Source of the DNA: Nanobdellota archaeon
GTDB taxonomy: Archaea > Nanobdellota > Nanobdellia > Woesearchaeales > JAHWHD01
Length of the DNA: 18,548 nt
NCBI GenBank assembly: GCA_034722435.1
Contig: JAYENX010000009.1
Location: 1 to 18,548 of the forward strand
Direction of reading: 5' to 3'
Position 1 is the first letter of the stretch. Every line of letters starts with the position of its first letter. Position numbers and translations under genes: made by a program. Under the pieces are notes generated by a model that had not been told where the DNA came from, made no database searches, and saw only the letters and a program-made list of their open reading frames with translations. This document shows positions 7,266 through 18,548 of the stretch, piece after piece.

Positions 7266-7628
7266 ATGAAGATATATTCTTTTTGTCTTATTGAAAAAGA
7301 ATCTAAGTATTTGGTTATGTTAAAAAGCAAGATGCCTTATTGGAACTTGCCTGGTGGTCATATTGAAGACGGTGAGAATTCTGTGAATTGTGTGATAAGG
7401 GAGACAAAAGAAGAGACTACATTGGATGTGTCCTCTTTAATTTTAATACATGAACTTAAGGTTTATTCTTTTCGAGGTAAGAAGATGGGTGTTTATTTAT
7501 ATAAAACAAATGATGTTAAAGGTTCTGTTGTGTTGAATGATGAACATATTGAATATAAATGGGTTACTAAAAAAGAAATACTTAAATTGAATGTGTTTGA
7601 TTATTTGAAAGAATGGGCACAAGGGTAA
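7266..7628 (+). CDS. NUDIX hydrolase
   Basis: Nudix box PGGHIEDGENSVNCVIRETKEETTL and C-terminal EHIEYKWV. TTTTAAAT (7236-7243) lies 22 nt upstream of ATG 7266. Confidence 0.9.
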   Translation: MKIYSFCLIEKESKYLVMLKSKMPYWNLPGGHIEDGENSVNCVIRETKEETTLDVSSLILIHELKVYSFRGKKMGVYLYKTNDVKGSVVLNDEHIEYKWVTKKEILKLNVFDYLKEWAQG

Positions 7629-7642
7629 GTTTTTTAATTAAA

Positions 7643-8515
7643 TTAGCAATTTTTATCAATAGCTTTTACAATCTTTTCTGTTGCTGTTTTTACTTTAATT
7701 TCTAACTTTTTTGGTATTCTGACTGCTCTGCCTTCTGCAAATAAATGCATTGGTCGGTTTGGAGATACGAATAACATGGCACCTGCGTATTTGCCGTTAA
7801 CTGTCATGCTACGTATTTCGAAGAATTCGTTTTTAAACAAATCATGTGAATGGATAAGTTGTTGTAGAATGTATGGTCCTGTTATTTTAAAGTCTTTAGG
7901 GATTTCTTCGTATGAATGGAAAATGTAAAGGCCTTGGCTTTTTTGGCCCTTAAGAGGTTTTAGAACAAAACCGTCTGTTAAAGTGTTTTTTACTATTTTT
8001 TTTATATCTGACTTTTTATTTATTTTGAAAGATTTAGGTACTTTTACGTTTGTGTTTTCTTTTACAATTTTCTGCGTTTTTAATTTGTTTAGAGTTAATC
8101 GTGATATACATAATGGATTAATAACTTTAATTCCTGCTTTTTCTTGGGCGGTTGCGATTCCGGCACCTGCTCTTAAAACAACATCAGGTAGTATAATCTT
8201 GTTTCTGGATGTGATTAAAGAACCGTCTCCTTCTTTCATCCTTTTACGGTTTTTTTCGTAAGGGCAGAAGTTTATGTTTCCTTTGAAATATTTCTTGAAC
8301 TCTTTTGAAACAATAGTTTTATTCCAATTACCTCTTGAGATTACAGCTAAAGTTTTGTATTTGTTTAAGAATTTACATAGTTCTTTTACAGGTTTTACAG
8401 TAGGGTATATTTTTTTGTATTCTTTTAATGCGCCTGGTGAAGAGTTGGCTTCAATAAAGTAAAGGTCTTTATGTTTATCATAAATGAAATCCAGAGCTGC
8501 GTATGTGTAGTTCAT
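7643..8515 (-). CDS. RimK/LysX-like ATP-grasp ligase, circularly permuted
   Basis: Motifs NKLKTQ, VPKS, VLKPLKGQKSQG, ILQQLI and EIRSMTVNGK are present. The normally C-terminal D...ExN segment (ALDFIY...FIEANSSPG) is at the N-terminus. Confidence 0.8.
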   Translation of the reverse strand: MNYTYAALDFIYDKHKDLYFIEANSSPGALKEYKKIYPTVKPVKELCKFLNKYKTLAVISRGNWNKTIVSKEFKKYFKGNINFCPYEKNRKRMKEGDGSLITSRNKIILPDVVLRAGAGIATAQEKAGIKVINPLCISRLTLNKLKTQKIVKENTNVKVPKSFKINKKSDIKKIVKNTLTDGFVLKPLKGQKSQGLYIFHSYEEIPKDFKITGPYILQQLIHSHDLFKNEFFEIRSMTVNGKYAGAMLFVSPNRPMHLFAEGRAVRIPKKLEIKVKTATEKIVKAIDKNC

Positions 8516-8616
8516 TACTATTATATTATGTATTGTGGTATTAAAGGGTTGTGGTTGAGTAAGTTAATCTTTTGATTTCAAAACAATTATAAACTTCTTA
8601 TGTTTTCTAAGTTATT

Positions 8617-8898
8617 ATGACGGCAAGAGATAAATACGGACATACGTCTGTGAAGGATAAGGATGGTAAAGTATTGTTTGATTATTATTATAGTGAGAAT
8701 GATGGTTGGACATTGAAGAATAGAGGTTTTGAGACTGATCTGGAGATTAATTTTGGTACCTGTACAATTGATGATTTAACAGGCGTTCTTCCTAGTCTTC
8801 CGAAAGATGTATATACACTTGTTTCTGGGATGATCGTTAAAGGTAAGCTTGTTTCAGGAAGTTATAGGCAACCTGAACCTGATTTTAGTAAGAGATAA
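8617..8898 (+). CDS. Hypothetical protein (93 aa)
   Basis: ATTATAAA (8586-8593) lies 23 nt upstream of the ATG. No recognised family. Confidence 0.6.
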   Translation: MTARDKYGHTSVKDKDGKVLFDYYYSENDGWTLKNRGFETDLEINFGTCTIDDLTGVLPSLPKDVYTLVSGMIVKGKLVSGSYRQPEPDFSKR

Positions 8899-9055
8899 TT
8901 CTGAAGAAATCATTGTATGTATATGGTAGTTTTAAGTATAATATAAAGAGGATAAGGTTGGACTTATTCTGAATTGATATTTTTAATATTTTTATTATAA
9001 TATTTTCGCATTATTTGCGATAATCTTTATAAAGTATTAAGCATTGTAAAGGTGT

Positions 9056-10507
9056 ATGCGATGGTTAATATTGTTCATTGTGCTTTTGTTACTTGTTTCT
9101 GTAGTTGTGGCTAAACCTCTTGTTACTGTTAAGAAAGATGGTGAGTTTGTATATGGTCAGATTATAAGTTATGATGAAGAGGACGATTATGATTCTTCCA
9201 AAGGAGGGTTACTTGATAATTCCGAGCCTGATGAAGAAGGGGTAAGGTATCATGTACGTTTATCTGATGATGATCTTTTGATGGGTTATTTAAAGTTTAG
9301 TCAAGATACTCCAATAGAAGTTAATCTTGACAGGGTTGTTGAGGTTGAGGTAAAGGAGAAACCTTATATGAAAACTTTAATGATTACAAGTGCCGATTTT
9401 TATTGTACTGATATTGAAGTCAGGGATAAAGGTATTTTCTCTGTTCTTGCATCGAAAAGTTATCTTAGATTTTTTGATAACAAAGTTATGTTGCCTGATT
9501 TTATGGATAAGTATAGGTTTCATTTTCAAAGTAATTTTGGATATAATGATTATTTTGATGGTTTTTTTGTTCTTGTTAAAGGTAGCAAAATTGTTATTGA
9601 TGATGAGGATGTTTATGTTAATGGTGAAAAATTAGAGAAGATAGGTAGTAAATCTGATTTCGAGAGTTATAATCTTGTGATGGAGGGAGGGTGTACAGAA
9701 CTTCCAATTTCTGAGAGATTTGTTGTTCAAGATGAGTCTGTTGAGAATGAAGAAATTGTTGATGGAGATTTTGATGAGTTAGGTGTGCTTGTAGTGTTTG
9801 CTTTTTTTTCTGGCGATGATAAATTTAATGGAGCTGATTTGCAGGAGTTTGGTGAGGAAGTGAAGAAAGCTTTTGTTTCTGGTTTGAATATTTGTGCTGA
9901 TATTCGGGTTATAACTGCTGGTTCTTGTGAAGGGTTTAAGTATGATGGTGAAAAGGATTCTGATAATTGGAATATTGGAAAGGATTGTGTATTTGAAGAG
10001 AATCCTTTTTATAGAAAATATTTTAATAATACTATATTTCTTGCTATAGGTAATAATAATGTGAAAACGAGTTATTTTGATTATGGTTTTCCTGGTGTGA
10101 GTTCAGCATCAATACCTGGGTTTATATTTACAAGGTATGGAAAGATAAATGCTGCAGTGCATGAACTTGGGCATAGTTTTGGGTTGAATGAAGGGTATTG
10201 TTATAATCCTCCAGGGAATGAACAGTGTCCAGAAGGAAAAGATTGTACTTCTAATCCGACTGATTCTTCTTTAGACGGAAATGAACCTGCGTTTTGGGGA
10301 TTTTTTAATTGGATAAATAGTTTAGTGGATGGAGATTATTGTGAAAGTCAAACGGGGTACAGATTGAGTGTTAAAGGGAATAAATGGGATCCTCCTAATG
10401 GAGGAAGGACGTATATGGCAATGGAAGATGCTCAAGGTCCGCGCGGTTGGGATAAGTATGATAGAAAATATTTGAATAATTATTTTTTATTGAAGTGTGA
10501 AGAATAA
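9056..10507 (+). CDS. Secreted acidic protein with a C-terminal zinc metallopeptidase-like domain
   Basis: Signal peptide MRWLILFIVLLLLVSVVVA, motif VHELGHSFGLNE, Cys-rich C-terminal region and a downstream Met (YMAM). TTTATAAA at 9026-9033. Confidence 0.75.
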   Translation: MRWLILFIVLLLLVSVVVAKPLVTVKKDGEFVYGQIISYDEEDDYDSSKGGLLDNSEPDEEGVRYHVRLSDDDLLMGYLKFSQDTPIEVNLDRVVEVEVKEKPYMKTLMITSADFYCTDIEVRDKGIFSVLASKSYLRFFDNKVMLPDFMDKYRFHFQSNFGYNDYFDGFFVLVKGSKIVIDDEDVYVNGEKLEKIGSKSDFESYNLVMEGGCTELPISERFVVQDESVENEEIVDGDFDELGVLVVFAFFSGDDKFNGADLQEFGEEVKKAFVSGLNICADIRVITAGSCEGFKYDGEKDSDNWNIGKDCVFEENPFYRKYFNNTIFLAIGNNNVKTSYFDYGFPGVSSASIPGFIFTRYGKINAAVHELGHSFGLNEGYCYNPPGNEQCPEGKDCTSNPTDSSLDGNEPAFWGFFNWINSLVDGDYCESQTGYRLSVKGNKWDPPNGGRTYMAMEDAQGPRGWDKYDRKYLNNYFLLKCEE

Positions 10508-10509
10508 AG

Positions 10510-11391
10510 TTAGTTCATTATTGTTTTTAGGTAATCTCCTACTTTGATACATACTTCAATAGCTTCTTGGTGGTAATATTTTACAGGGTCTTTATCGTTA
10601 TCAGCTAATATTCCAATTATTTTGTCAGTGCCTTTTGAATTTCTGTGAAGACGGAGTTCTTCATACGTGCCTGGTCTGAATATCATTTTTTCAGACTTTT
10701 CAAGGTTACGAAGTTTGACGTATATATCCGTAAGAAGTTTAAGAAGTTCAGCTGCGTTATCTTTTTTGAAGTATTTAGTGAGTTCAGAAAATTTATTGTA
10801 AAGTTCTTTAGGAATTTTTATAGAATTGCGTAGTTCTATGCTTCCGCCTTTTTTGTTGGAGTAAACTCTTCCGATTACAAAATTAATAGATTTACATTTA
10901 TCTTCAATACTGTTCAGAGATACTTTGAAGTTTTTCTTGTTTACAGAAAGTTGTTGATGTGCTTGTTTCAAAGATCTTCTTAAAGCTGTGATGTCTCTTG
11001 TATATTGTGAACGTTGTTGTTTGTAGAGTGTTTGAAGTTTTTTAACTGTGGTCTCTCGAGATATTGAGTGTTCGTTCCGTGCAATTATGAAGAATAATGC
11101 ATTTGCAAGGTATGCGATGATAATGTTAACAACTGCTAAATTTCCCCATTGATCTTTGATTAAAAAAAATAGTAAAGGAAATATTAATGGAGCTATTAAT
11201 ACTAAACGCATATCTTGTTTTCGTATAAAAAACATTAATATTAGATATAATAAAAATGGTAGTAAGCCTGCGAAGACTTTGTCAAGAGCGGATTCTGTAA
11301 GGAATGATAATATCATCATAGCCGATATAAAGAATACGCTTGAAGAAATCAGCATTACTTTGTTATTGAAATACAGTACCTCTTTTTGCAT
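10510..11391 (-). CDS. Hypothetical membrane protein (4 N-terminal TM helices, coiled coil, soluble C-terminal domain)
   Basis: Four hydrophobic segments in the first ~105 aa, then a heptad-like region. Minus-strand TTTAAATA at 11417-11424. Confidence 0.75.
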   Translation of the reverse strand: MQKEVLYFNNKVMLISSSVFFISAMMILSFLTESALDKVFAGLLPFLLYLILMFFIRKQDMRLVLIAPLIFPLLFFLIKDQWGNLAVVNIIIAYLANALFFIIARNEHSISRETTVKKLQTLYKQQRSQYTRDITALRRSLKQAHQQLSVNKKNFKVSLNSIEDKCKSINFVIGRVYSNKKGGSIELRNSIKIPKELYNKFSELTKYFKKDNAAELLKLLTDIYVKLRNLEKSEKMIFRPGTYEELRLHRNSKGTDKIIGILADNDKDPVKYYHQEAIEVCIKVGDYLKTIMN

Positions 11392-11446
11392 AATGGGGTT
11401 ATTTTAGAGGTTTTAGTATTTAAATGTTTAGAATGAAAAAAAATAA

Positions 11447-12076
11447 TTATACTAATTTTTCAAGAGTTGTGTAAGCTTTTTCCCAGAATGTAGGTGAAGC
11501 TTTTTGTCCAGGTTTGTCTTTATCGCAATCAACTAAATGTCTGCCATATTTAGTACTTATGACTTGAGTAAGATGGTCGTGATGGTATGTAGATGTTGCA
11601 ATTACAAAAGGAAGTCCTCTAGATCTTGCTTCTTCAGCTATTAATACACCTAATGGTTGGTTTGAAGCAGATTCTTGGATTGCCATTCTCATAGCTTCTT
11701 TGTATCCTATTGCACTAAAAAAATTAGGTAGATGTGCATTTTTCGCAAGTAGTTCTCCTACTTTTTTACGTGTTTCTCCTTCTGCACCTAATGTATCAAG
11801 AACTTTTATCATAGCTTTAGATACTGGGGTGTCTTTACTTATTTTTGTGTCTTTAGTAAGATCTTCTAGAACTTGGTATCCTAGTTTTCTATCTTCACTT
11901 CCAGTTTCTGCAGGAAAAAAGCAATCAGTGATTATTCCACCATAAGTGTTAATCTTTAAAAGTTGCATAGCTTGTTTGTAATCTGAAACATAGTCTACTT
12001 CAATGTTTCTAGTTTTAAAGAATTCTTCTGCAGCTTTTTTGAACTCAGGGTTATCTTCTACTAATAATATTTTCAT
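11447..12076 (-). CDS. Stand-alone response-regulator receiver (REC) protein with a large internal insertion
   Basis: ILLVEDN, phosphoacceptor IITD51, LPFVIATS and a late Lys (GQK). SD AGGTGA at 12086-12091 (minus). Confidence 0.8.
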   Translation of the reverse strand: MKILLVEDNPEFKKAAEEFFKTRNIEVDYVSDYKQAMQLLKINTYGGIITDCFFPAETGSEDRKLGYQVLEDLTKDTKISKDTPVSKAMIKVLDTLGAEGETRKKVGELLAKNAHLPNFFSAIGYKEAMRMAIQESASNQPLGVLIAEEARSRGLPFVIATSTYHHDHLTQVISTKYGRHLVDCDKDKPGQKASPTFWEKAYTTLEKLV

Positions 12077-12217
12077 TTTAATTTTTCACCTTGTTAAATT
12101 GTATTAATATTTTTGATTAATGTTTTACTTATATTTAAATGTTTCTTTATGTGACTACTGGTAAGGGGTTCTAAATCACAACTAACCTTTATATTCAACT
12201 CTTTATGAACTATTAAT

Positions 12218-12976
12218 ATGGCTATGATTGACGTTGGACATCCTGATATGATGAGTCTTTATAGGGGTCTTGTTATGTTGACAAAGATACCTGAACTTTG
12301 TAAAGAACAAAATAAAGGTAAGAATAAAAAGAAAAGTAAAAAAAAGAAGGATGTTGAGCCTGTACGAATCTTGGATGTAGGTGGTGGTATCGGTAAGATC
12401 GGTTTTGTGATGCGGTACGAGTTAAATTTAAAGAATTGGGAGTATCATAATGTTGATCAAGATCGGAGTCATCTTGAACGAAGTGTGGGTAATACTTATC
12501 ATGCTGATAGGGATGATATTGATACTTTATTTCAAGCGGATTATTTTCATAGATGTTTTTATATATTTCCAGCGGCTAAAACTTTTACTAGTGAAGATGG
12601 TCAGAGGCGTAATATTGATAAAATTGTAGATGATGATTTAGAGGGTATGTCTAATGCTTATTTTATACCTATATTTAAACAGATACATGTGTTAAGAAAA
12701 CGTGGTCTTTTAGCATTTGCACATTTTGATTACATGAATTTTGATTTTTTATTTGAGGGTATTAATAATGCAGGGATGATTTTGCAAGAAACTTTTGAAT
12801 GGGGAGTGCCTGAAAGTTGTGTATCTTATGCAGATGGAGATGGGCATGTGCCTGGTGTTAAGGCGTATATTTTCCGAAAACAGAGACGGACTAAAGTTCT
12901 TGACAAAGTTACTGAGTTAAAAGAAATGATTAAGATTGAGAAGGTTAAGAAGTCTAAAGGTTGGCCCATTTATTAG
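12218..12976 (+). CDS. Class I SAM-dependent methyltransferase-like protein
   Basis: Motif I RILDVGGGIG and an acidic motif II (NVDQD). TTTATATT at 12188-12195. Substrate unknown. Confidence 0.6.
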   Translation: MAMIDVGHPDMMSLYRGLVMLTKIPELCKEQNKGKNKKKSKKKKDVEPVRILDVGGGIGKIGFVMRYELNLKNWEYHNVDQDRSHLERSVGNTYHADRDDIDTLFQADYFHRCFYIFPAAKTFTSEDGQRRNIDKIVDDDLEGMSNAYFIPIFKQIHVLRKRGLLAFAHFDYMNFDFLFEGINNAGMILQETFEWGVPESCVSYADGDGHVPGVKAYIFRKQRRTKVLDKVTELKEMIKIEKVKKSKGWPIY

Positions 12977-13584: not shown

Positions 13585-13657
13585 TTTCTATGTATTCTTA
13601 AACCTATAGAACCATGTTACATAAATCTTTATAAGTTGTTGGTATTGTTTTTTTATG

Positions 13658-14587
13658 ATGAAAAAAATTGTGGTGATAGGTGGTGGAACAGGTAGTTATA
13701 CTGTGTTACGTGGTTTGAAAAAGTTTTCTAAATATGATCTTACGGCGATAATTGCAATGTTTGATTCTGGTGCTAGTACTGGGATGTTACGTGATGAATA
13801 TGGTATACTTCCTCCGGGGGATATAAGGAAGGCTCTTACTGCTTTGGGTGATACTTCGTTAATGCGGAAGATATTCAAGTATAGGTTTAGTAAGACTGAT
13901 AAACATTCACTTGGTAATCTTATGTTAACAGCTCTAGGTGATATTGCTGGTGATGAGGCTGAAGGGTACAAACTTGCTTCAAAACTTTTGAATGTTCAAG
14001 GTAGAGTTCTTCCGGTTACTACGGATCATTGTCATTTTAATGCTGAGCTTTTTGATGGTCGTGTTTTAAAGGGTGAGAGTAATTTTAATTTCCCTGTTAG
14101 TTCTCCAATAAAAAAGATTTGGCTTGAGCCTAAATCTATTATTTATGAGGATGCAAGAAATGCTATTGAAGATGCTGATCTTATAGTTATAGGTCCTGGT
14201 TCTTTGTATACAAGTGTATGTTGTAATTTTTTAGTTGAAGGTTTTGCTGAAGCTATTAGAAAGAGTAAAGCTAAGAAAGTTTATGTGTGCAATATTATGA
14301 CTCAGTTGAGTGAGACTGATGGTATGAGTGTGGTTGAACATGTTTCTGTTGTTGAATCATTTTTAGGTGAAAATGTGTTGGATTATGTTATAGTTAATAG
14401 TAAAAGGCCGTCTAATGAACTATTGGAAAAATATAAACAAGAAGATGCTTATTTTGTGATTGATGATAGTGAAGAGTTGAATTATAATATAATACGAGCA
14501 AACCTTTTATATGAGCCTGATTTGATAAGGCACAATCGAGAAAAATTGGCAAGGTTAGTACTTGAACTTGCTGAGGTGGAAAAATGA
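13658..14587 (+). CDS. yvcK: YvcK/GlmR (UPF0052, CofD-related) family protein
   Basis: VVIGGGTG, DSGASTG.LR, PPGDIR, HSLGNL, IGPGSLYTS and VCNIMTQ. TTTATAAG (13628-13635) favours ATG 13658, though 13655 is possible. Confidence 0.9.
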   Translation: MKKIVVIGGGTGSYTVLRGLKKFSKYDLTAIIAMFDSGASTGMLRDEYGILPPGDIRKALTALGDTSLMRKIFKYRFSKTDKHSLGNLMLTALGDIAGDEAEGYKLASKLLNVQGRVLPVTTDHCHFNAELFDGRVLKGESNFNFPVSSPIKKIWLEPKSIIYEDARNAIEDADLIVIGPGSLYTSVCCNFLVEGFAEAIRKSKAKKVYVCNIMTQLSETDGMSVVEHVSVVESFLGENVLDYVIVNSKRPSNELLEKYKQEDAYFVIDDSEELNYNIIRANLLYEPDLIRHNREKLARLVLELAEVEK

Positions 14588-15270
14588 AAGTTGTATTATT
14601 GGCTGCAGGGAAGGGTACGCGTATGATGCCTTTGACAAAGGATACTCCTAAACCTTTACTAAAGATTAATGGTAAACCTTTTTTGTATTATATGATTGAA
14701 AGATTGAAAAAGGCAGGGTATACTGAATTTGGAATTATTTATTCAGTTATGAAGGATCAGTTTGAGAGGTTTATGGATGAGTATAATGTTAATGGTACTT
14801 TGATAATGCAAGAGAATCAACTTGGTACTGGTGATGCTTTGAAAAAGGCGCGAGCTTTTATTGGTGAAGATGATTTTGTTATGATATATGCTGATAATAT
14901 TTTTTCTGTTGATGATTATAAACATTTTAATTTAAGTGATGATTTTTGTTATGTTTCAGGTCTTAAGCATGAACATCCTGAAAATTATGGTGTGCTTTTG
15001 GAGAAAGATGGTTATTTGAGGGAGATAGTTGAGAAACCGAAAGAGTTTGTTGGTAATCTTATCAGTGCAGGAATTTTCAAGTTTACTCCTGCGATTTTTG
15101 ATGCTCTTGATAAGATTGAACTTTCTCCCAGAGGTGAATATGAACTTACAGATGCAGTCACTATACTTGCTGAGAAAAAGAAAGTTAAGGTTGTTCAAGT
15201 ATCTATAATGGTTGATTTTGGTAAGTTAGAAGATGTGCCGAAGGTTGAATCGTATCTTTCTGATGAGTGA
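14584..15270 (+). CDS. Sugar-phosphate nucleotidyltransferase (NTP_transferase; GlmU/RmlA-like catalytic domain only)
   Basis: LLAAGKGTRMMPLT...KPLL, QLGTGDA, YADN, EKP and PRGEYELTDA. ATGA overlap with yvcK. Confidence 0.92.
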   Translation: MKVVLLAAGKGTRMMPLTKDTPKPLLKINGKPFLYYMIERLKKAGYTEFGIIYSVMKDQFERFMDEYNVNGTLIMQENQLGTGDALKKARAFIGEDDFVMIYADNIFSVDDYKHFNLSDDFCYVSGLKHEHPENYGVLLEKDGYLREIVEKPKEFVGNLISAGIFKFTPAIFDALDKIELSPRGEYELTDAVTILAEKKKVKVVQVSIMVDFGKLEDVPKVESYLSDE

Positions 15271-15375
15271 AACCGTCTCGTTCACCTGCTGTAATTTATA
15301 TTTTTTGTAATACAGCATCGTTGCAGTCTTACGATTAGTGGGCTGGTTCACTGGCCATTACTGGCGACGTTTTCA
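15268..15375. ncRNA. Candidate structured RNA or MITE-like element between convergent genes
   Basis: 46/108 G+C by hand count, 10-nt terminal inverted repeats (9/10 match) and three internal hairpins. No family recognised. Confidence 0.3.
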
Positions 15376-16080
15376 TATTTTTCTAAAGAAACTTAAGAAA
15401 GCTGTATGTGCAATCATTTGCGATTTTGGTCTGACACGTCTGCCGTCAATGTGCCATTCTCTTTCTAATAATTCAATTGTTTTAATATGTCTTAACCCAG
15501 ATATTTTTACCATTTCTTGTACTTGGGATGTAGTAGGAAGGTATGTTACGACAAAACCTGCGGGTTTTAAGCAGAGTTCAATAACATCAAGGTAGTCCCA
15601 TGGTTGGGGTAGGTCGAGAGTTATCAGGTCAACTTTTTCTTTTGCTTCTTTCAAGTCTTTGTTTTCTATAGTTATATTTTTTATTTCTAAATCTTCTATA
15701 TTGAATTTTGCAATTTTATAATGTTTATCGTTGTTTTCATAAGTGTAGACATGTTTTGCGGTGTTTGATAAAGTTATAGCTAGAGCTCCTGAACCAGCGC
15801 CAGCATCTAAAACCATAGATTCTTTGTTTAGACCTGTTTCTGCAATAATATATCCTGCATCTTTAGGGAGAACAATTGCTGCACCCCTCTTTATTTTTTT
15901 TTGAAGATCTGCACGTGTAGGTGTAAATATTGATAGTTCTTTATCAGTATTAGTTTTTATTATTCCTTCTTTTTCAAGATCTGATTTGCTGACAATACCG
16001 AAATGTGTATGGTAATCTTTAGAGGTGTCTCTAACGAAGAACATTTTGTTGTCAGGTGTTATAAGGATTTTTTTAATCAT
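15373..16080 (-). CDS. trmI: tRNA (adenine-N1)-methyltransferase, TrmI/GCD14 family
   Basis: HTHFG, KRGAAIVLPKDAGYI, LDAGAGSGAL, TLDLPQPW, YLPTTSQV and RPKSQMIAHTAFL. Confidence 0.93.
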   Translation of the reverse strand: MIKKILITPDNKMFFVRDTSKDYHTHFGIVSKSDLEKEGIIKTNTDKELSIFTPTRADLQKKIKRGAAIVLPKDAGYIIAETGLNKESMVLDAGAGSGALAITLSNTAKHVYTYENNDKHYKIAKFNIEDLEIKNITIENKDLKEAKEKVDLITLDLPQPWDYLDVIELCLKPAGFVVTYLPTTSQVQEMVKISGLRHIKTIELLEREWHIDGRRVRPKSQMIAHTAFLSFFRKI

Positions 16081-16102
16081 AATTAGTTTTTATAGATGGA
16101 AG

Positions 16103-16110
16103 TTTATAAA
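16103..16110 (-). promoter_or_regulatory. TATA box of trmI
   Basis: TTTATAAA lies 22 nt upstream of ATG 16080 and 2 nt downstream of the sigma-factor stop codon. Confidence 0.7.
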
Positions 16111-16112
16111 GA

Positions 16113-17417
16113 TTACTCGTAGAAAGTTTCGAGAGGTTTAGCTCTTGATGGATGTCTAAGTCTTCTAAGTGCTTTTGCTTCAAGCTGTCTTATACGTTCT
16201 CTTGTGACGCCGAACTTGTGACCTATTGCTTCGAGAGTCATTGGTTTTTCGCCGTTAATTCCGAATCTTAGTTTTAAAACTGTTTTTTCTCTATGAGGTA
16301 TTTTGTTTAACTGTCTTTCAACTTCGTCTGAAAGAGCTATTTTATTGGCTTCTTCTTCTGGAAGGTTCATAGAACCTGCAATTCGTTCATGAGGGTTTAT
16401 TTCTTCTGCATCTTTAGAGTCCATTGAAGAAGCATCTTGATATTCTCCTGATAAGATTTTGTTGACTTCATCAACAGGTTCTTTTGAGTAATTAGCTATG
16501 GTTTCAGCGCTTAAGTTTCTTCTACCTTGTTGTGCAAGGAAATTTCTGGCTTTCTTAACTTTTCTTATGGTTTCATGTTTGTGTACAGGTTTTCGTATGA
16601 CGTCGCGTTGGTTATTTAATCCTCGGGTTATTGCTTGACGTATCCACCATATGACGTAAGTAGTTAAACGAAAACCTCTATCTTGATCATATTTTTCAAC
16701 TCCTCTTATTAATCCTCTATTTCCCTCTTGTATGAGATCGAGAAAATCTAAGCCGTGTCCTATATATTTTTTAGCTACTTTGACGACAAGCCGAAGGCAT
16801 GATTGGACAAGTATGTTAGCTGCTTCTTGGTCATCTTGGTCTTTAAGTTTGGCATAATGTACTATTTCTGCATTTGTTAGATTTTTATATCTGGAAATTT
16901 CGTTAAAATATGACATAAGGTCGTTTGATGAGAATTTGGGATCTTCTAAAATATTTTCAAGTTTGTCTTCTTTTAATTCTTTTTCGAGGCTTTGAATATC
17001 TTTAGTAGAAGGTTCGTCATTGTTATCTGCAATATATTGTTTTTCTTCTATAACTATATCTCTTATAGTTCCGCATTGGGATTCTTTTTTCTTTGGTACT
17101 GGTTGTTGGTTAAGTTCTGTACGATGTTTTAATTTTTTGATTCTTTTAGCAGCTTTTTTGATCTTTTCTCTAAAAGTTTTTTGATAGTTACTAGGGATGT
17201 ATGTATTGTCTCTGTATATTACAACTCCTTGGATGTGCGGTACGAGCGGGATAAGATTCTCCAGGTCATCTCCTTGTGCGGGAACGAGTTTTTGTTCTCT
17301 CTGGAGTTGGTGGAAATATTGACTACCTTGTAAAGGACCTTTAGGGGTTTCATAGTTTTTTTTACGATCTATATATGTTACTCCTAATTTTTCTTTTAAT
17401 TCCTTTACATTAACCAT
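16113..17417 (-). CDS. rpoD: Sigma-70-family RNA polymerase sigma factor, group-1 (RpoD/SigA)-like, with an atypical N-terminal domain
   Basis: Region 1.2 (DLMSYFNEISRYKNLT), 2.1 (LRLVVKVAKKY), 2.2 (FLDLIQEGNRGL), 2.3-2.4 (TTYVIWWIRQAITR), 3.0 (IRKPVH) and 4.2 (TLEAIGHKFGVTRERIRQLEAKALRRLRHPSR). Confidence 0.95.
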   Translation of the reverse strand: MVNVKELKEKLGVTYIDRKKNYETPKGPLQGSQYFHQLQREQKLVPAQGDDLENLIPLVPHIQGVVIYRDNTYIPSNYQKTFREKIKKAAKRIKKLKHRTELNQQPVPKKKESQCGTIRDIVIEEKQYIADNNDEPSTKDIQSLEKELKEDKLENILEDPKFSSNDLMSYFNEISRYKNLTNAEIVHYAKLKDQDDQEAANILVQSCLRLVVKVAKKYIGHGLDFLDLIQEGNRGLIRGVEKYDQDRGFRLTTYVIWWIRQAITRGLNNQRDVIRKPVHKHETIRKVKKARNFLAQQGRRNLSAETIANYSKEPVDEVNKILSGEYQDASSMDSKDAEEINPHERIAGSMNLPEEEANKIALSDEVERQLNKIPHREKTVLKLRFGINGEKPMTLEAIGHKFGVTRERIRQLEAKALRRLRHPSRAKPLETFYE

Positions 17418-17440
17418 ATTAATTAGAACTTTAGGGTGTT

Positions 17441-17452
17441 TTATATAATTTT
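17441..17452 (-). promoter_or_regulatory. Archaeal-type TATA/BRE promoter of the sigma-factor gene (leaderless layout)
   Basis: Minus-strand TTATATAA (17441-17448) lies 23 nt upstream of ATG 17417 and is preceded by AAAA. No SD site is visible. Confidence 0.6.
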
Positions 17453-17513
17453 AGAATAGTATTTATAAATATTTATAAGGTAAAAAGTAAGTTGTTTCTG
17501 AACAGATTCATCC

Positions 17514-18455
17514 TTACTCAGATTTCTTTGAAATCTTCGCAACGAAAAATCCTTCTGTATCATTATCTTGGGGCCAGATTCTTAAACATTTTTTAACTTC
17601 TGGGTTATACGTTTGTTTTTCAAATTCTAGTATTGGTGGCGAAGTTTTTAGTTTGGGTATATCAATTGGAAGAAGTTTTGCATCTTCGTGATTTTCTAAG
17701 AACCATGAGATAACGCCTTCGTCTTCTTCAGGTTCAATTGAGCATGTTGAATATACTAAGGTGCCGCCTTTTTTTAGGTTTTTGAAGCCTGCACTTAGAA
17801 TTTTTTTTTGTTGTTTTGCCATGTGTCTAATAAATCCTGGGCTCCATTCTGTTAATGTTCTAATAGATTTTCGTATAGTACCTGTTCCTGAGCAAGGCGC
17901 GTCAACAAGTACTTTGTCGAATTCGAATCCTTTAAAGTAAGCTCCGTCCATTAATGTAGTTACAACATTGGTGATACCCATTCTTTGAAGGTTTATACCT
18001 AGAGGTGCTAATCTTATACCTCTATAATCATTAGCAACAAGTACACCTTGATTTTCCATGAACGCAGCCATTTGGCTAGTTTTTGAACCAGGGGCAGCGC
18101 ATAAATCCAGAACTTTTTCACCAGGTTTTGGTTCAAGGACAAGAGGAGGGATCATTGAAGCTGCGCCTTGGACGTAGAAATATCCTAGAGAGTGTTCAAT
18201 GGTGTTACCTATATCTATCCTATCTTCAGTTCTATGTTTTATCCAGAAACCTTCCTTGCACCAAGGTACTTGTGTAAGTTCCCAGTTTTTCATTTTTTTA
18301 ATAAGTTCTGGTATTGAAATTTTAAGAGTGTTAACTCTGAGAGATCGTGTAGGTCTTTTTATTGAGTAAGTAATGAAATCTTCATATCTATCTTCAAGAA
18401 TGGTTTTAAAACGTTGTTCAAACTTTGGTTTTACAAGTTTTCTGTAATCTTCCAT
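17514..18455 (-). CDS. NOL1/NOP2/Sun (RsmB/RsmF-like) RNA cytosine-C5 methyltransferase, archaeal short form
   Basis: RVNTLK, YVQGAASM, VLDLCAAPGSKT, LVDAPCSG (motif IV Cys) and LVYSTCS (motif VI Cys). TTTATAAA (18478-18485) lies 22 nt upstream of ATG 18455; the track start is 18458. Confidence 0.95.
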   Translation of the reverse strand: MEDYRKLVKPKFEQRFKTILEDRYEDFITYSIKRPTRSLRVNTLKISIPELIKKMKNWELTQVPWCKEGFWIKHRTEDRIDIGNTIEHSLGYFYVQGAASMIPPLVLEPKPGEKVLDLCAAPGSKTSQMAAFMENQGVLVANDYRGIRLAPLGINLQRMGITNVVTTLMDGAYFKGFEFDKVLVDAPCSGTGTIRKSIRTLTEWSPGFIRHMAKQQKKILSAGFKNLKKGGTLVYSTCSIEPEEDEGVISWFLENHEDAKLLPIDIPKLKTSPPILEFEKQTYNPEVKKCLRIWPQDNDTEGFFVAKISKKSE

Positions 18456-18548
18456 CATGATTTAAATAGGGTAATGTTTTATAAAGGTTATTGAATAACA
18501 TAGATGTGGAAGTTTAAGTTTGGTGATGGTCGAGATTAAGATAAATTT

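Follow-up and report, generated by a model that had tools for sequence, protein, structure and literature searches.

Sigma factors on the one hand and TBP, TFB, and TFE on the other are the textbook markers of bacterial and archaeal transcription initiation, respectively. Sigma factors were reportedly found in Archaea by Rinke and co-workers in 2013. Here, we analyzed a sigma-70-family gene carried by an 18,548-nucleotide stretch of DNA (the window) of a Nanobdellota archaeon (Woesearchaeales, JAHWHD01; assembly GCA_034722435.1). The window is the entire contig JAYENX010000009.1 (C9) of genome G000, and the product of the gene is designated P0001. Sigma-70 genes of DPANN archaea have been described as family fam00359, “particularly prevalent in Woesearchaeota”; that study ruled out mis-binning, detected no anti-sigma factor, and left the mechanism open (Castelle et al., 2021, PMC8204110). 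The initial annotation of the window, made from its letters, knew of no characterised case. None has been characterised, but the presence of sigma-70 in DPANN has already been published, and P0001 is a further example of that group. As in the published cases, a protein with regions 2 and 4 is encoded in a genome with TBP, TFB, TFE, and an archaeal polymerase only, and mis-binning is excluded by co-encoded informative genes. P0001 does not differ from these homologues in kind; specific to it are an orphan N-terminal domain, a decayed region 3.2, the position between RsmF-like and TrmI-like genes, and an N383C substitution. P0001 is almost certainly a resident, vertically inherited, and selectively maintained DPANN (Woesearchaeota-type) sigma-70 homologue.

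The uninterrupted open reading frame (ORF) of 434 codons initially proposed at 16113–17417 as a sigma-70 gene was confirmed on the minus strand by Pfam matches to regions 2 and 4. Sigma70_r2 (PF04542) matched residues 203–271 with 69.3 bits against a gathering threshold of 24 (E = 2.4e-19), and Sigma70_r4 (PF04545) matched residues 370–422 with 63.8 bits against 24.1 (E = 1e-17); P0001 is a member of the sigma-70 family by these two regions. Region 3 (PF04539) did not reach its Pfam cut-off of 25.3, scoring 18 bits (E = 0.0032). Region 1.1 (PF03979) gave no Pfam match in P0001 even at E ≤ 10, and region 1.2 was not called by Pfam in P0001; a weak match to region 1.2 (PF00140) was present in the orthologue P0002, the closest relative of P0001, which was assembled independently from a different sample. 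The claim that every core region was present thus stood for a region 1.2-like segment and regions 2 and 4, but not for region 3 (below cut-off, with degenerate 3.2) or region 1.1 (undetected). The top solved relatives of P0001 were SigA, RpoD, and RpoS chains, the best being SigA chain 7ckq_F (2.4e-61, residues 123–434), and the AlphaFold model of P0001 matched the same chains.

Residues 203–434 of P0001 were aligned by BLASTP with residues 379–612 of RpoD of Escherichia coli K-12 (reference sequence taken from NC_000913) with 42% identity and without gaps in region 2. All residues that had been mapped by eye onto the E. coli protein were aligned as proposed. The melting aromatics Y430, W433, and W434 of RpoD correspond to Y254, W257, and W258 of P0001, and the −10 readers Q437 and T440 to Q261 and T264. 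In the region 2.2 motif LDLIQEGN, D403, Q406, E407, and N409 of RpoD correspond to D227, Q230, E231, and N233, and the VTRERIRQ segment of region 4.2 is identical in both proteins. An invariant set of 119 alignment columns, conserved at ≥95% in 41 bacterial RpoD sequences, was used for comparison: P0001 retained 84 of these positions and E. coli RpoS 83. Retention was 31/35 in region 4, where all four substitutions were conservative, 35/48 in region 2, and 3/12 in the region 3.2 finger, which also carried a two-residue deletion. The equivalents of H455 and E458 of region 3 were retained. The N383C substitution, in the NLRLV motif of region 2, was unique to the P0001 copy.

P0001 thus shares with the bacterial group 1 and 2 sigma factors (RpoD/SigA, RpoS) the fold, the region order 1.2-2-3-4, and all the named core-binding, melting, −10, and −35 residues. 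It differs from RpoD/SigA in that no region 1.1 was detected, region 3 was below cut-off, the 3.2 finger was degenerate, and neither a dnaG–rpoD operon nor a bacterial core polymerase was present in the genome. The NCBIfam RpoD equivalog models were not reached (PRK09210, 247 against a cut-off of 572; PRK05658, 238 against 555; TIGR02393, 229 against 354), and every RpoD or RpoS equivalog score of P0001 was far under its cut-off. Because of the missing region 1.1, the degenerate region 3, and the scores under all the RpoD equivalog cut-offs, P0001 is, as judged from its sequence, RpoD-like and not a primary sigma factor; the term “primary-type” used initially was overstated and describes resemblance, not membership.

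Genome G000 (1.30 Mb, 60 contigs, completeness 94.5%, contamination 2%) encoded two TBP and two TFB genes. The polymerase was encoded by a single operon on contig C11 in the archaeal order H-B''-B'-A'-A'' with both B and A' split; the one Rpb2_6 match and the one Rpb1_2 match of the genome both fell within this archaeal split-gene order. The genomic context of the P0001 gene is archaeal, as had been recognized from the letters and as the TBP, TFB, and polymerase genes confirm. A bacterial-type RNA polymerase encoded elsewhere had been considered; the search of G000 for polymerase genes gave the archaeal enzyme only, and the C-terminal domain of bacterial alpha was not found in this 94.5% complete genome. 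Nor was zf-HC2 (PF13490), the one anti-sigma family searched for in G000. The search for other sigma genes, proposed at the outset, found two paralogues of P0001, so that G000 has three sigma genes, of 434 (C9), 516 (C56), and 826 amino acids (C59). The C56 paralogue contained all four Pfam sigma regions and shared a 59-kb contig with TFB, eIF-6, FtsY, and ScpA; in the C59 paralogue the sigma part was C-terminal, and the gene adjoined ELP3. Each of ten sigma-bearing relatives examined, five of them closed or nearly closed, had one polymerase B gene.

P0002 (433 amino acids) was 50% identical to P0001 end to end. On its contig an RsmF-like gene, the sigma gene, and a TrmI-like gene were followed on the opposite strand by NTP-transferase and CofD-like genes, an order matching that of C9. 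The order was also matched in G001, an unpublished genome of the same genus as G000, by RsmF (76% identity), two sigma genes, TrmI (70–71%), NTP-transferase (60%), and FKBP (73%). The same-genus synteny, the rate contrast, and the contig adjacency described below rest on G001. In G002, also unpublished, the TrmI locus had no adjacent sigma gene. The G+C content of C9 was 0.329 against a genome mean of 0.330, its tetranucleotide correlation with the genome mean was 0.989 (contig median 0.988), and the G+C content of the sigma gene, in total and at third codon positions, resembled that of its neighbours. The synteny in the independent assembly and in G001, together with a composition typical of G000, supports the gene being resident and not chimeric.

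TATA-like hexamers in G000 peaked at positions −35 to −26 before start codons, with 561 hexamers in two 5-nucleotide bins for 997 genes, against a background of about 60–80 per 5-nucleotide bin outside the peak. This peak implies that most mRNAs of G000 are leaderless or very short-leadered. The boxes AATTATATAAAA, ahead of the sigma gene, and TTTATAAA, ahead of the TrmI-like gene, both sit at the genome-wide peak position. The sigma gene thus appears to have its own leaderless-type archaeal promoter of the kind usual for the organism.

Sigma70_r2 was found in 86 of the 201 genomes of the order (74/166 among the high-quality ones) and in 98/251 high-quality genomes of the phylum sample, all within the same class. 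These tallies, and that of TFE-alpha given below, take in a few unpublished genomes (G001, G108, G127, G351, G191, G193, and G195). Sigma copies were often in tandem, and closed single-contig genomes were among the carriers. Between G000 and G001, RpoA' was 87% identical and the flanking genes 60–76%, against 31–32% for the positional sigma orthologue; the rate at which the sigma gene evolves is about three times that of its neighbours. The identity of P0001 to archaeal homologues other than P0002 was 45–59% in region 2 and 38–51% in region 4, 14–36% in 3.0–3.1, and 10–17% in 3.2. Across 41 archaeal sigmas the core-binding residues D403 (40/41), E407 (38/41), and N409 (38/41) were conserved, as were the melting and −10 residues Y430 (41/41), W434 (39/41), W433 (36/41), and Q437 (36/41) and the region 4 residues E585 (37/41), R586 (36/41), and R588 (36/41). 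Although P0001, P0002, and the G001 copies have diverged heavily, none of them has lost its reading frame. Taken together, the strong divergence, the unbroken frames, and the focus of conservation on residues of known function point to purifying selection for a sigma-like activity. Function rather than decay had been suggested for P0001 itself, and the retention of DNA-reading and polymerase-binding residues in P0001 and in the 41 archaeal homologues agrees with this. As input for the ratio of nonsynonymous to synonymous substitutions (dN/dS), no close orthologue was found; the genomic and metagenomic contig matches were at most 52% identical and mostly bacterial or partial.

The sigma-70 tree proposed with the original observation was built by maximum likelihood. 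The archaeal sigmas were long-branched and did not form one clade; P0001 and P0002 paired with a support of 99. No bacterial donor was resolved by the tree, and its well-supported branches force at least two changes of label. In a relative, G041, four tandem sigma genes (encoding 287, 297, 371, and 684 amino acids) were located on a 126-kb archaeal contig (C3, genes at 7361–12496 of the stretch 9000–28000) syntenic with G000, and the only polymerase B gene of this genome was archaeal. The 684-amino-acid protein consisted of a complete RpoD (regions 1.1–4.2) fused to an N-terminal extension of 320 amino acids; from region 1.1 to the C-terminus it shared 62% identity with a genuine bacterial RpoD encoded in a dnaG–rpoD operon, and it retained 118/119 invariant positions. 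Whole rpoD genes seem still to be entering the relatives, where they then duplicate and decay.

Residues 1–103 of P0001 formed, in the full-length model, a small alpha/beta unit with a long helix (76–103), followed by the disordered linker. In an exhaustive HMMER search of 1.84 billion representative proteins this domain was found only in P0002 (55% identical) and in one spurious repeat protein; the positional orthologue in G001 gave a faint match. The domain had no match in Pfam or in the Atlas feature search, and a word-indexed search returned P0001 itself only. Its Atlas structure matches had template modelling (TM) scores by query of at most 0.48, under the level of a shared fold. Modelled alone, the domain gave a poor fold with a predicted local distance difference test (pLDDT) score of 59.6, and the best PDB match (VIA-align) had a Z of 4.2. 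None of the N-terminal extensions sampled in other archaeal sigmas was related to it. The proposal that the domain is one winged helix-turn-helix-like repeat unit of the C59 paralogue was not supported, hhalign against the N-termini of both paralogues being blank. By eye, the N-terminus of P0001 had no hydrophobic stretch resembling a signal peptide. The linker (residues 104–159) was 30% identical to that of P0002, with gaps, and residues 330–350 of the 3.2 finger had pLDDT values below 50.

Sites of the form TTGACA-N16–18-TATAAT were searched for in G000: the right spacing was no commoner than wrong ones, and TTGACA had no positional peak. Matches to the sigma-70 promoter at ≥10/12 positions were found in 102–108 upstream regions, compared with 80.5 ± 6.7 after dinucleotide shuffling. 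With wrong spacers the number was 87–104, which matches the small excess over the shuffles; this excess came mainly from sites whose −10-like hexamer falls on the archaeal TATA box.

On the polymerase side, substitution of R275, E295, or A302 of E. coli beta' impairs holoenzyme formation, the partners of these residues being sigma 403, 406, 407, and 409 (PMC8321222). In a gap-free alignment the archaeal A' coiled-coil has I, L, and H at these three positions. The sigma has kept the bacterial “key” residues, while the only clamp available to it in the cell lacks the three “lock” residues. The clamp coiled-coil of A' did not differ between 16 sigma-bearing and 11 sigma-lacking genomes, and co-adaptation of this coiled-coil to the presence of sigma, considered as a candidate, was not seen across the 27 genomes. 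A distribution complementary to that of TFE-alpha was likewise rejected; TFE-alpha was present in 196/201 genomes of the order irrespective of sigma, so that sigma is no replacement for it. At the clamp coiled-coil, TFE-alpha is the functional counterpart of sigma region 2, without homology to sigma; a sigma on the archaeal clamp would sit where TFE and Spt5 bind and might stabilise the open complex. Prediction of the complex of sigma residues 160–292 with RpoA' residues 1–420, both entered as alignments, gave a score of 0.00, that is, “no answer”, and was not used as evidence.

The DPANN sigma-70 homologues very probably descend from bacterial rpoD-like genes gained by horizontal transfer, with subsequent duplication and rapid divergence. 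For P0001 we tentatively prefer the reading that it regulates transcription in the archaeon’s own cell by binding DNA. The gene would be transcribed from its own archaeal TATA-type promoter, giving a cytoplasmic chain of five parts, namely the orphan N-terminal domain, the disordered linker, regions 1.2/2, the decayed region 3, and region 4. Within the archaeal cell this protein would regulate transcription by sequence-specific DNA binding, with the helix-turn-helix of region 4 and the surface of region 2 as the probable contacts and without a canonical bacterial-type holoenzyme. Against such a holoenzyme speak the single polymerase B gene in the ten relatives, the lost 3.2 finger, and the unchanged clamp. 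Several points nevertheless weigh against the regulator. The four region 2.2 residues that contact the bacterial beta' coiled-coil are surface residues whose retention a polymerase-independent binder does not account for, and the melting aromatics work on single-stranded DNA in the open complex, which points to a polymerase-coupled role. G000 has no excess of TTGACA-N16–18-TATAAT sites, so no set of targets is visible under sigma-70 specificity. Finally, the low identity of the same-genus orthologues (31–32%, against 60–87% for neighbours) could mean relaxed constraint or an arms race.

A continued interaction of the archaeal sigmas with a multisubunit RNA polymerase, either the archaeon’s own enzyme through its clamp coiled-coil or the bacterial enzyme of a partner cell, is on the whole somewhat unlikely. 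Its first form, which we consider doubtful, is hybrid initiation: the sigma would dock on the A' clamp coiled-coil of the archaeon’s own RNA polymerase, at the TFE/Spt5 site. At certain promoters it would then assist in recruiting the enzyme or in melting DNA, serving as an additional initiation factor of a TFE-like or alternative kind. The archaeal enzyme is indeed the sole polymerase encoded, region 2.2 and the melting residues are conserved in the 41 archaeal sigmas despite 30–45% overall identity, and the clamp tip is partly common to both domains (by our count, 14/50 aligned positions, including the A-P-[DE]-I-I turn, R278, L279, and Q300). The coiled-coil is, however, alike with or without sigma and carries I, L, and H at R275, E295, and A302, the 3.2 finger is lost, TFE-alpha has not been displaced in the order, and no sigma-70-type promoter signal was seen in G000. 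Archaeal polymerases are also not known to have the flap-tip helix to which region 4 binds in bacteria. The second form, in which the sigma, like those encoded by phages, works on the bacterial RNA polymerase of another cell (a partner, a host, or prey), is improbable, although it would account for the retained bacterial interface residues. The invariant positions are retained at the level of RpoS (84/119 overall, 31/35 in region 4), and the consensus −10 and −35 readers are kept, yet G000 lacks matching promoters. The sigma genes evolve fast, occur as tandem paralogues, and vary in their N-terminal extensions, features that recall genes of conflict, and relatives seem to keep acquiring whole bacterial rpoD genes. 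P0001, however, has no N-terminus resembling a signal peptide by eye, its 3.2 finger, an important element in initiation by bacterial core enzyme, is degenerate, and the gene lies among housekeeping RNA-modification genes. We know of no bacterial host shown for these archaea and of no route of protein transfer.

The remaining explanations have far lower probability. A neutral relic, that is, a transferred gene decaying without function, would fit the 31–32% identity of same-genus positional orthologues, the decayed region 3.2, and the orphan N-terminus; it is highly improbable in view of the intact frames in P0001, P0002, and the G001 copies, the conservation concentrated on known functional residues, the gene’s own TATA box and host-like composition, and the retention of sigma genes in about 40% of the group’s genomes. 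The joining or binning of a bacterial fragment with archaeal DNA might be suspected in a 60-contig metagenome-type assembly. This artefact is close to refuted by the same gene order in an independent assembly from another sample and in G001, by the composition typical of G000, by the C56 paralogue sharing its contig with TFB and eIF-6, and by the sigma genes of closed single-contig relatives. Hardly more credible is a role in anti-phage defence like that of MzaA, a sigma-70-family protein of the MZA system. Among the NCBIfam and PADLOC models P0001 matched MzaA best, over its C-terminal sigma part (266 and 180 bits, respectively), but 266 bits stand against a cut-off of 800, and the generic sigma part alone aligned, the N-terminal 400 residues of MzaA being unmatched. 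Partner genes were absent nearby: no other Mza model was matched by the nine proteins of the window, and the PADLOC matches of neighbours were limited to mad2, PDC-M60C, and BrxC.

The polymerase-coupled readings are those that would matter, if true. Engagement with a polymerase would be what maintains selection on the bacterial residues for core binding and DNA melting in organisms that have no bacterial polymerase, and engagement through the organism’s own clamp coiled-coil would amount to a hybrid bacterial/archaeal initiation pathway. That about 40% of the genomes of this lineage keep and duplicate sigma genes without a bacterial polymerase is a real unsolved problem, and in at least one relative the acquisition of an entire bacterial rpoD appears to be fairly recent. 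The window offers a clean test case, a copy of single-domain architecture with a defined, putative archaeal promoter and a series of positional orthologues in which the sigma is 50% and 31–32% identical, against 60–87% for the neighbours in G001.

The features of the sigma locus are listed in Table 1.

Table 1. Features of the sigma gene and its surroundings in the window.
Feature	Coordinates	Strand	Basis or remark
NOL1/NOP2/Sun (RsmB/F-type) RNA m5C methyltransferase, upstream neighbour	17514..18458	−	Pfam; TIGR00446 above cut-off
TATA-like box AATTATATAAAA	17439..17450	−	22–33 nucleotides upstream of the sigma ATG; putative promoter
Sigma-70-family gene (P0001)	16113..17417	−	434 amino acids plus TAA stop, uninterrupted ORF
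N-terminal lineage-specific domain, residues 1–103	17109..17417	−	AlphaFold2 pLDDT 74–93; homologue P0002
Linker, residues 104–159, basic then acidic	16941..17108	−	pLDDT <50 at 104–134
Region 1.2-like segment, residues 160–195	16833..16940	−	phmmer alignment to region 1.2 of B. subtilis-type SigA
Region 2, residues 196–275 (helix 2.2, melting aromatics, −10 readers)	16593..16832	−	Pfam r2, residue mapping
Degenerate region 3, residues 276–355, with decayed 3.2 finger (about 326–355)	16353..16592	−	Pfam r3 below cut-off
Region 4, residues 356–434, −35-reading helix-turn-helix VTRERIRQ	16116..16352	−	Pfam r4
TTTATAAA box	16103..16110	−	In the 32-nucleotide spacer between the sigma and TrmI-like genes; 23–30 nucleotides upstream of the TrmI-like gene
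GCD14/TrmI-like methyltransferase, downstream neighbour	15373..16080	−	Pfam PF08704

A contig of G001 joined orthologues of the genes at the start of C59 (ELP3, 77% identity; sigma; FmrO, 76%) to orthologues of those at the end of C9 (RsmF, 76%; sigmas; TrmI). Since both sets were joined on one contig in G001, the end of C9 (18459–18548) and the start of C59 (1–3456) probably abut in G000; no sequence overlap was found between the ends of the two contigs. If they abut, FmrO–sigma (826 amino acids) and RsmF–sigma (434 amino acids)–TrmI would form two divergent units, in each of which an RNA methyltransferase gene is immediately followed by a sigma gene.

The initial view that all neighbours look archaeal went too far, the neighbourhood being mixed. 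A YvcK/CofD-related protein of a bacterial-type UDP-GlcNAc-binding family (TIGR01826, above cut-off) was encoded at 13655–15270 on the plus strand; its gene overlapped by 4 nucleotides with that of a sugar-1-phosphate nucleotidyltransferase resembling the N-terminal half of archaeal GlmU, and the pair was retained on the P0002 contig. At 11447–12076 on the minus strand, a protein of 209 amino acids with a receiver-like N-terminus (PF00072, 29.7 bits, slightly below cut-off) and a C-terminal half without family assignment was encoded; the window contains no histidine kinase. Two large proteins without a family match, encoded on the plus strand at 9056–10507 and 725–2671, had hydrophobic N-termini resembling signal peptides; one contained a HELGH motif like that of zinc proteases, and the other gave a weak match to a transglutaminase core. 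The GC skew of the plus strand was positive along all 18548 nucleotides, even over the stretch where all genes lie on the minus strand (15373–18458, skew 0.03–0.12).

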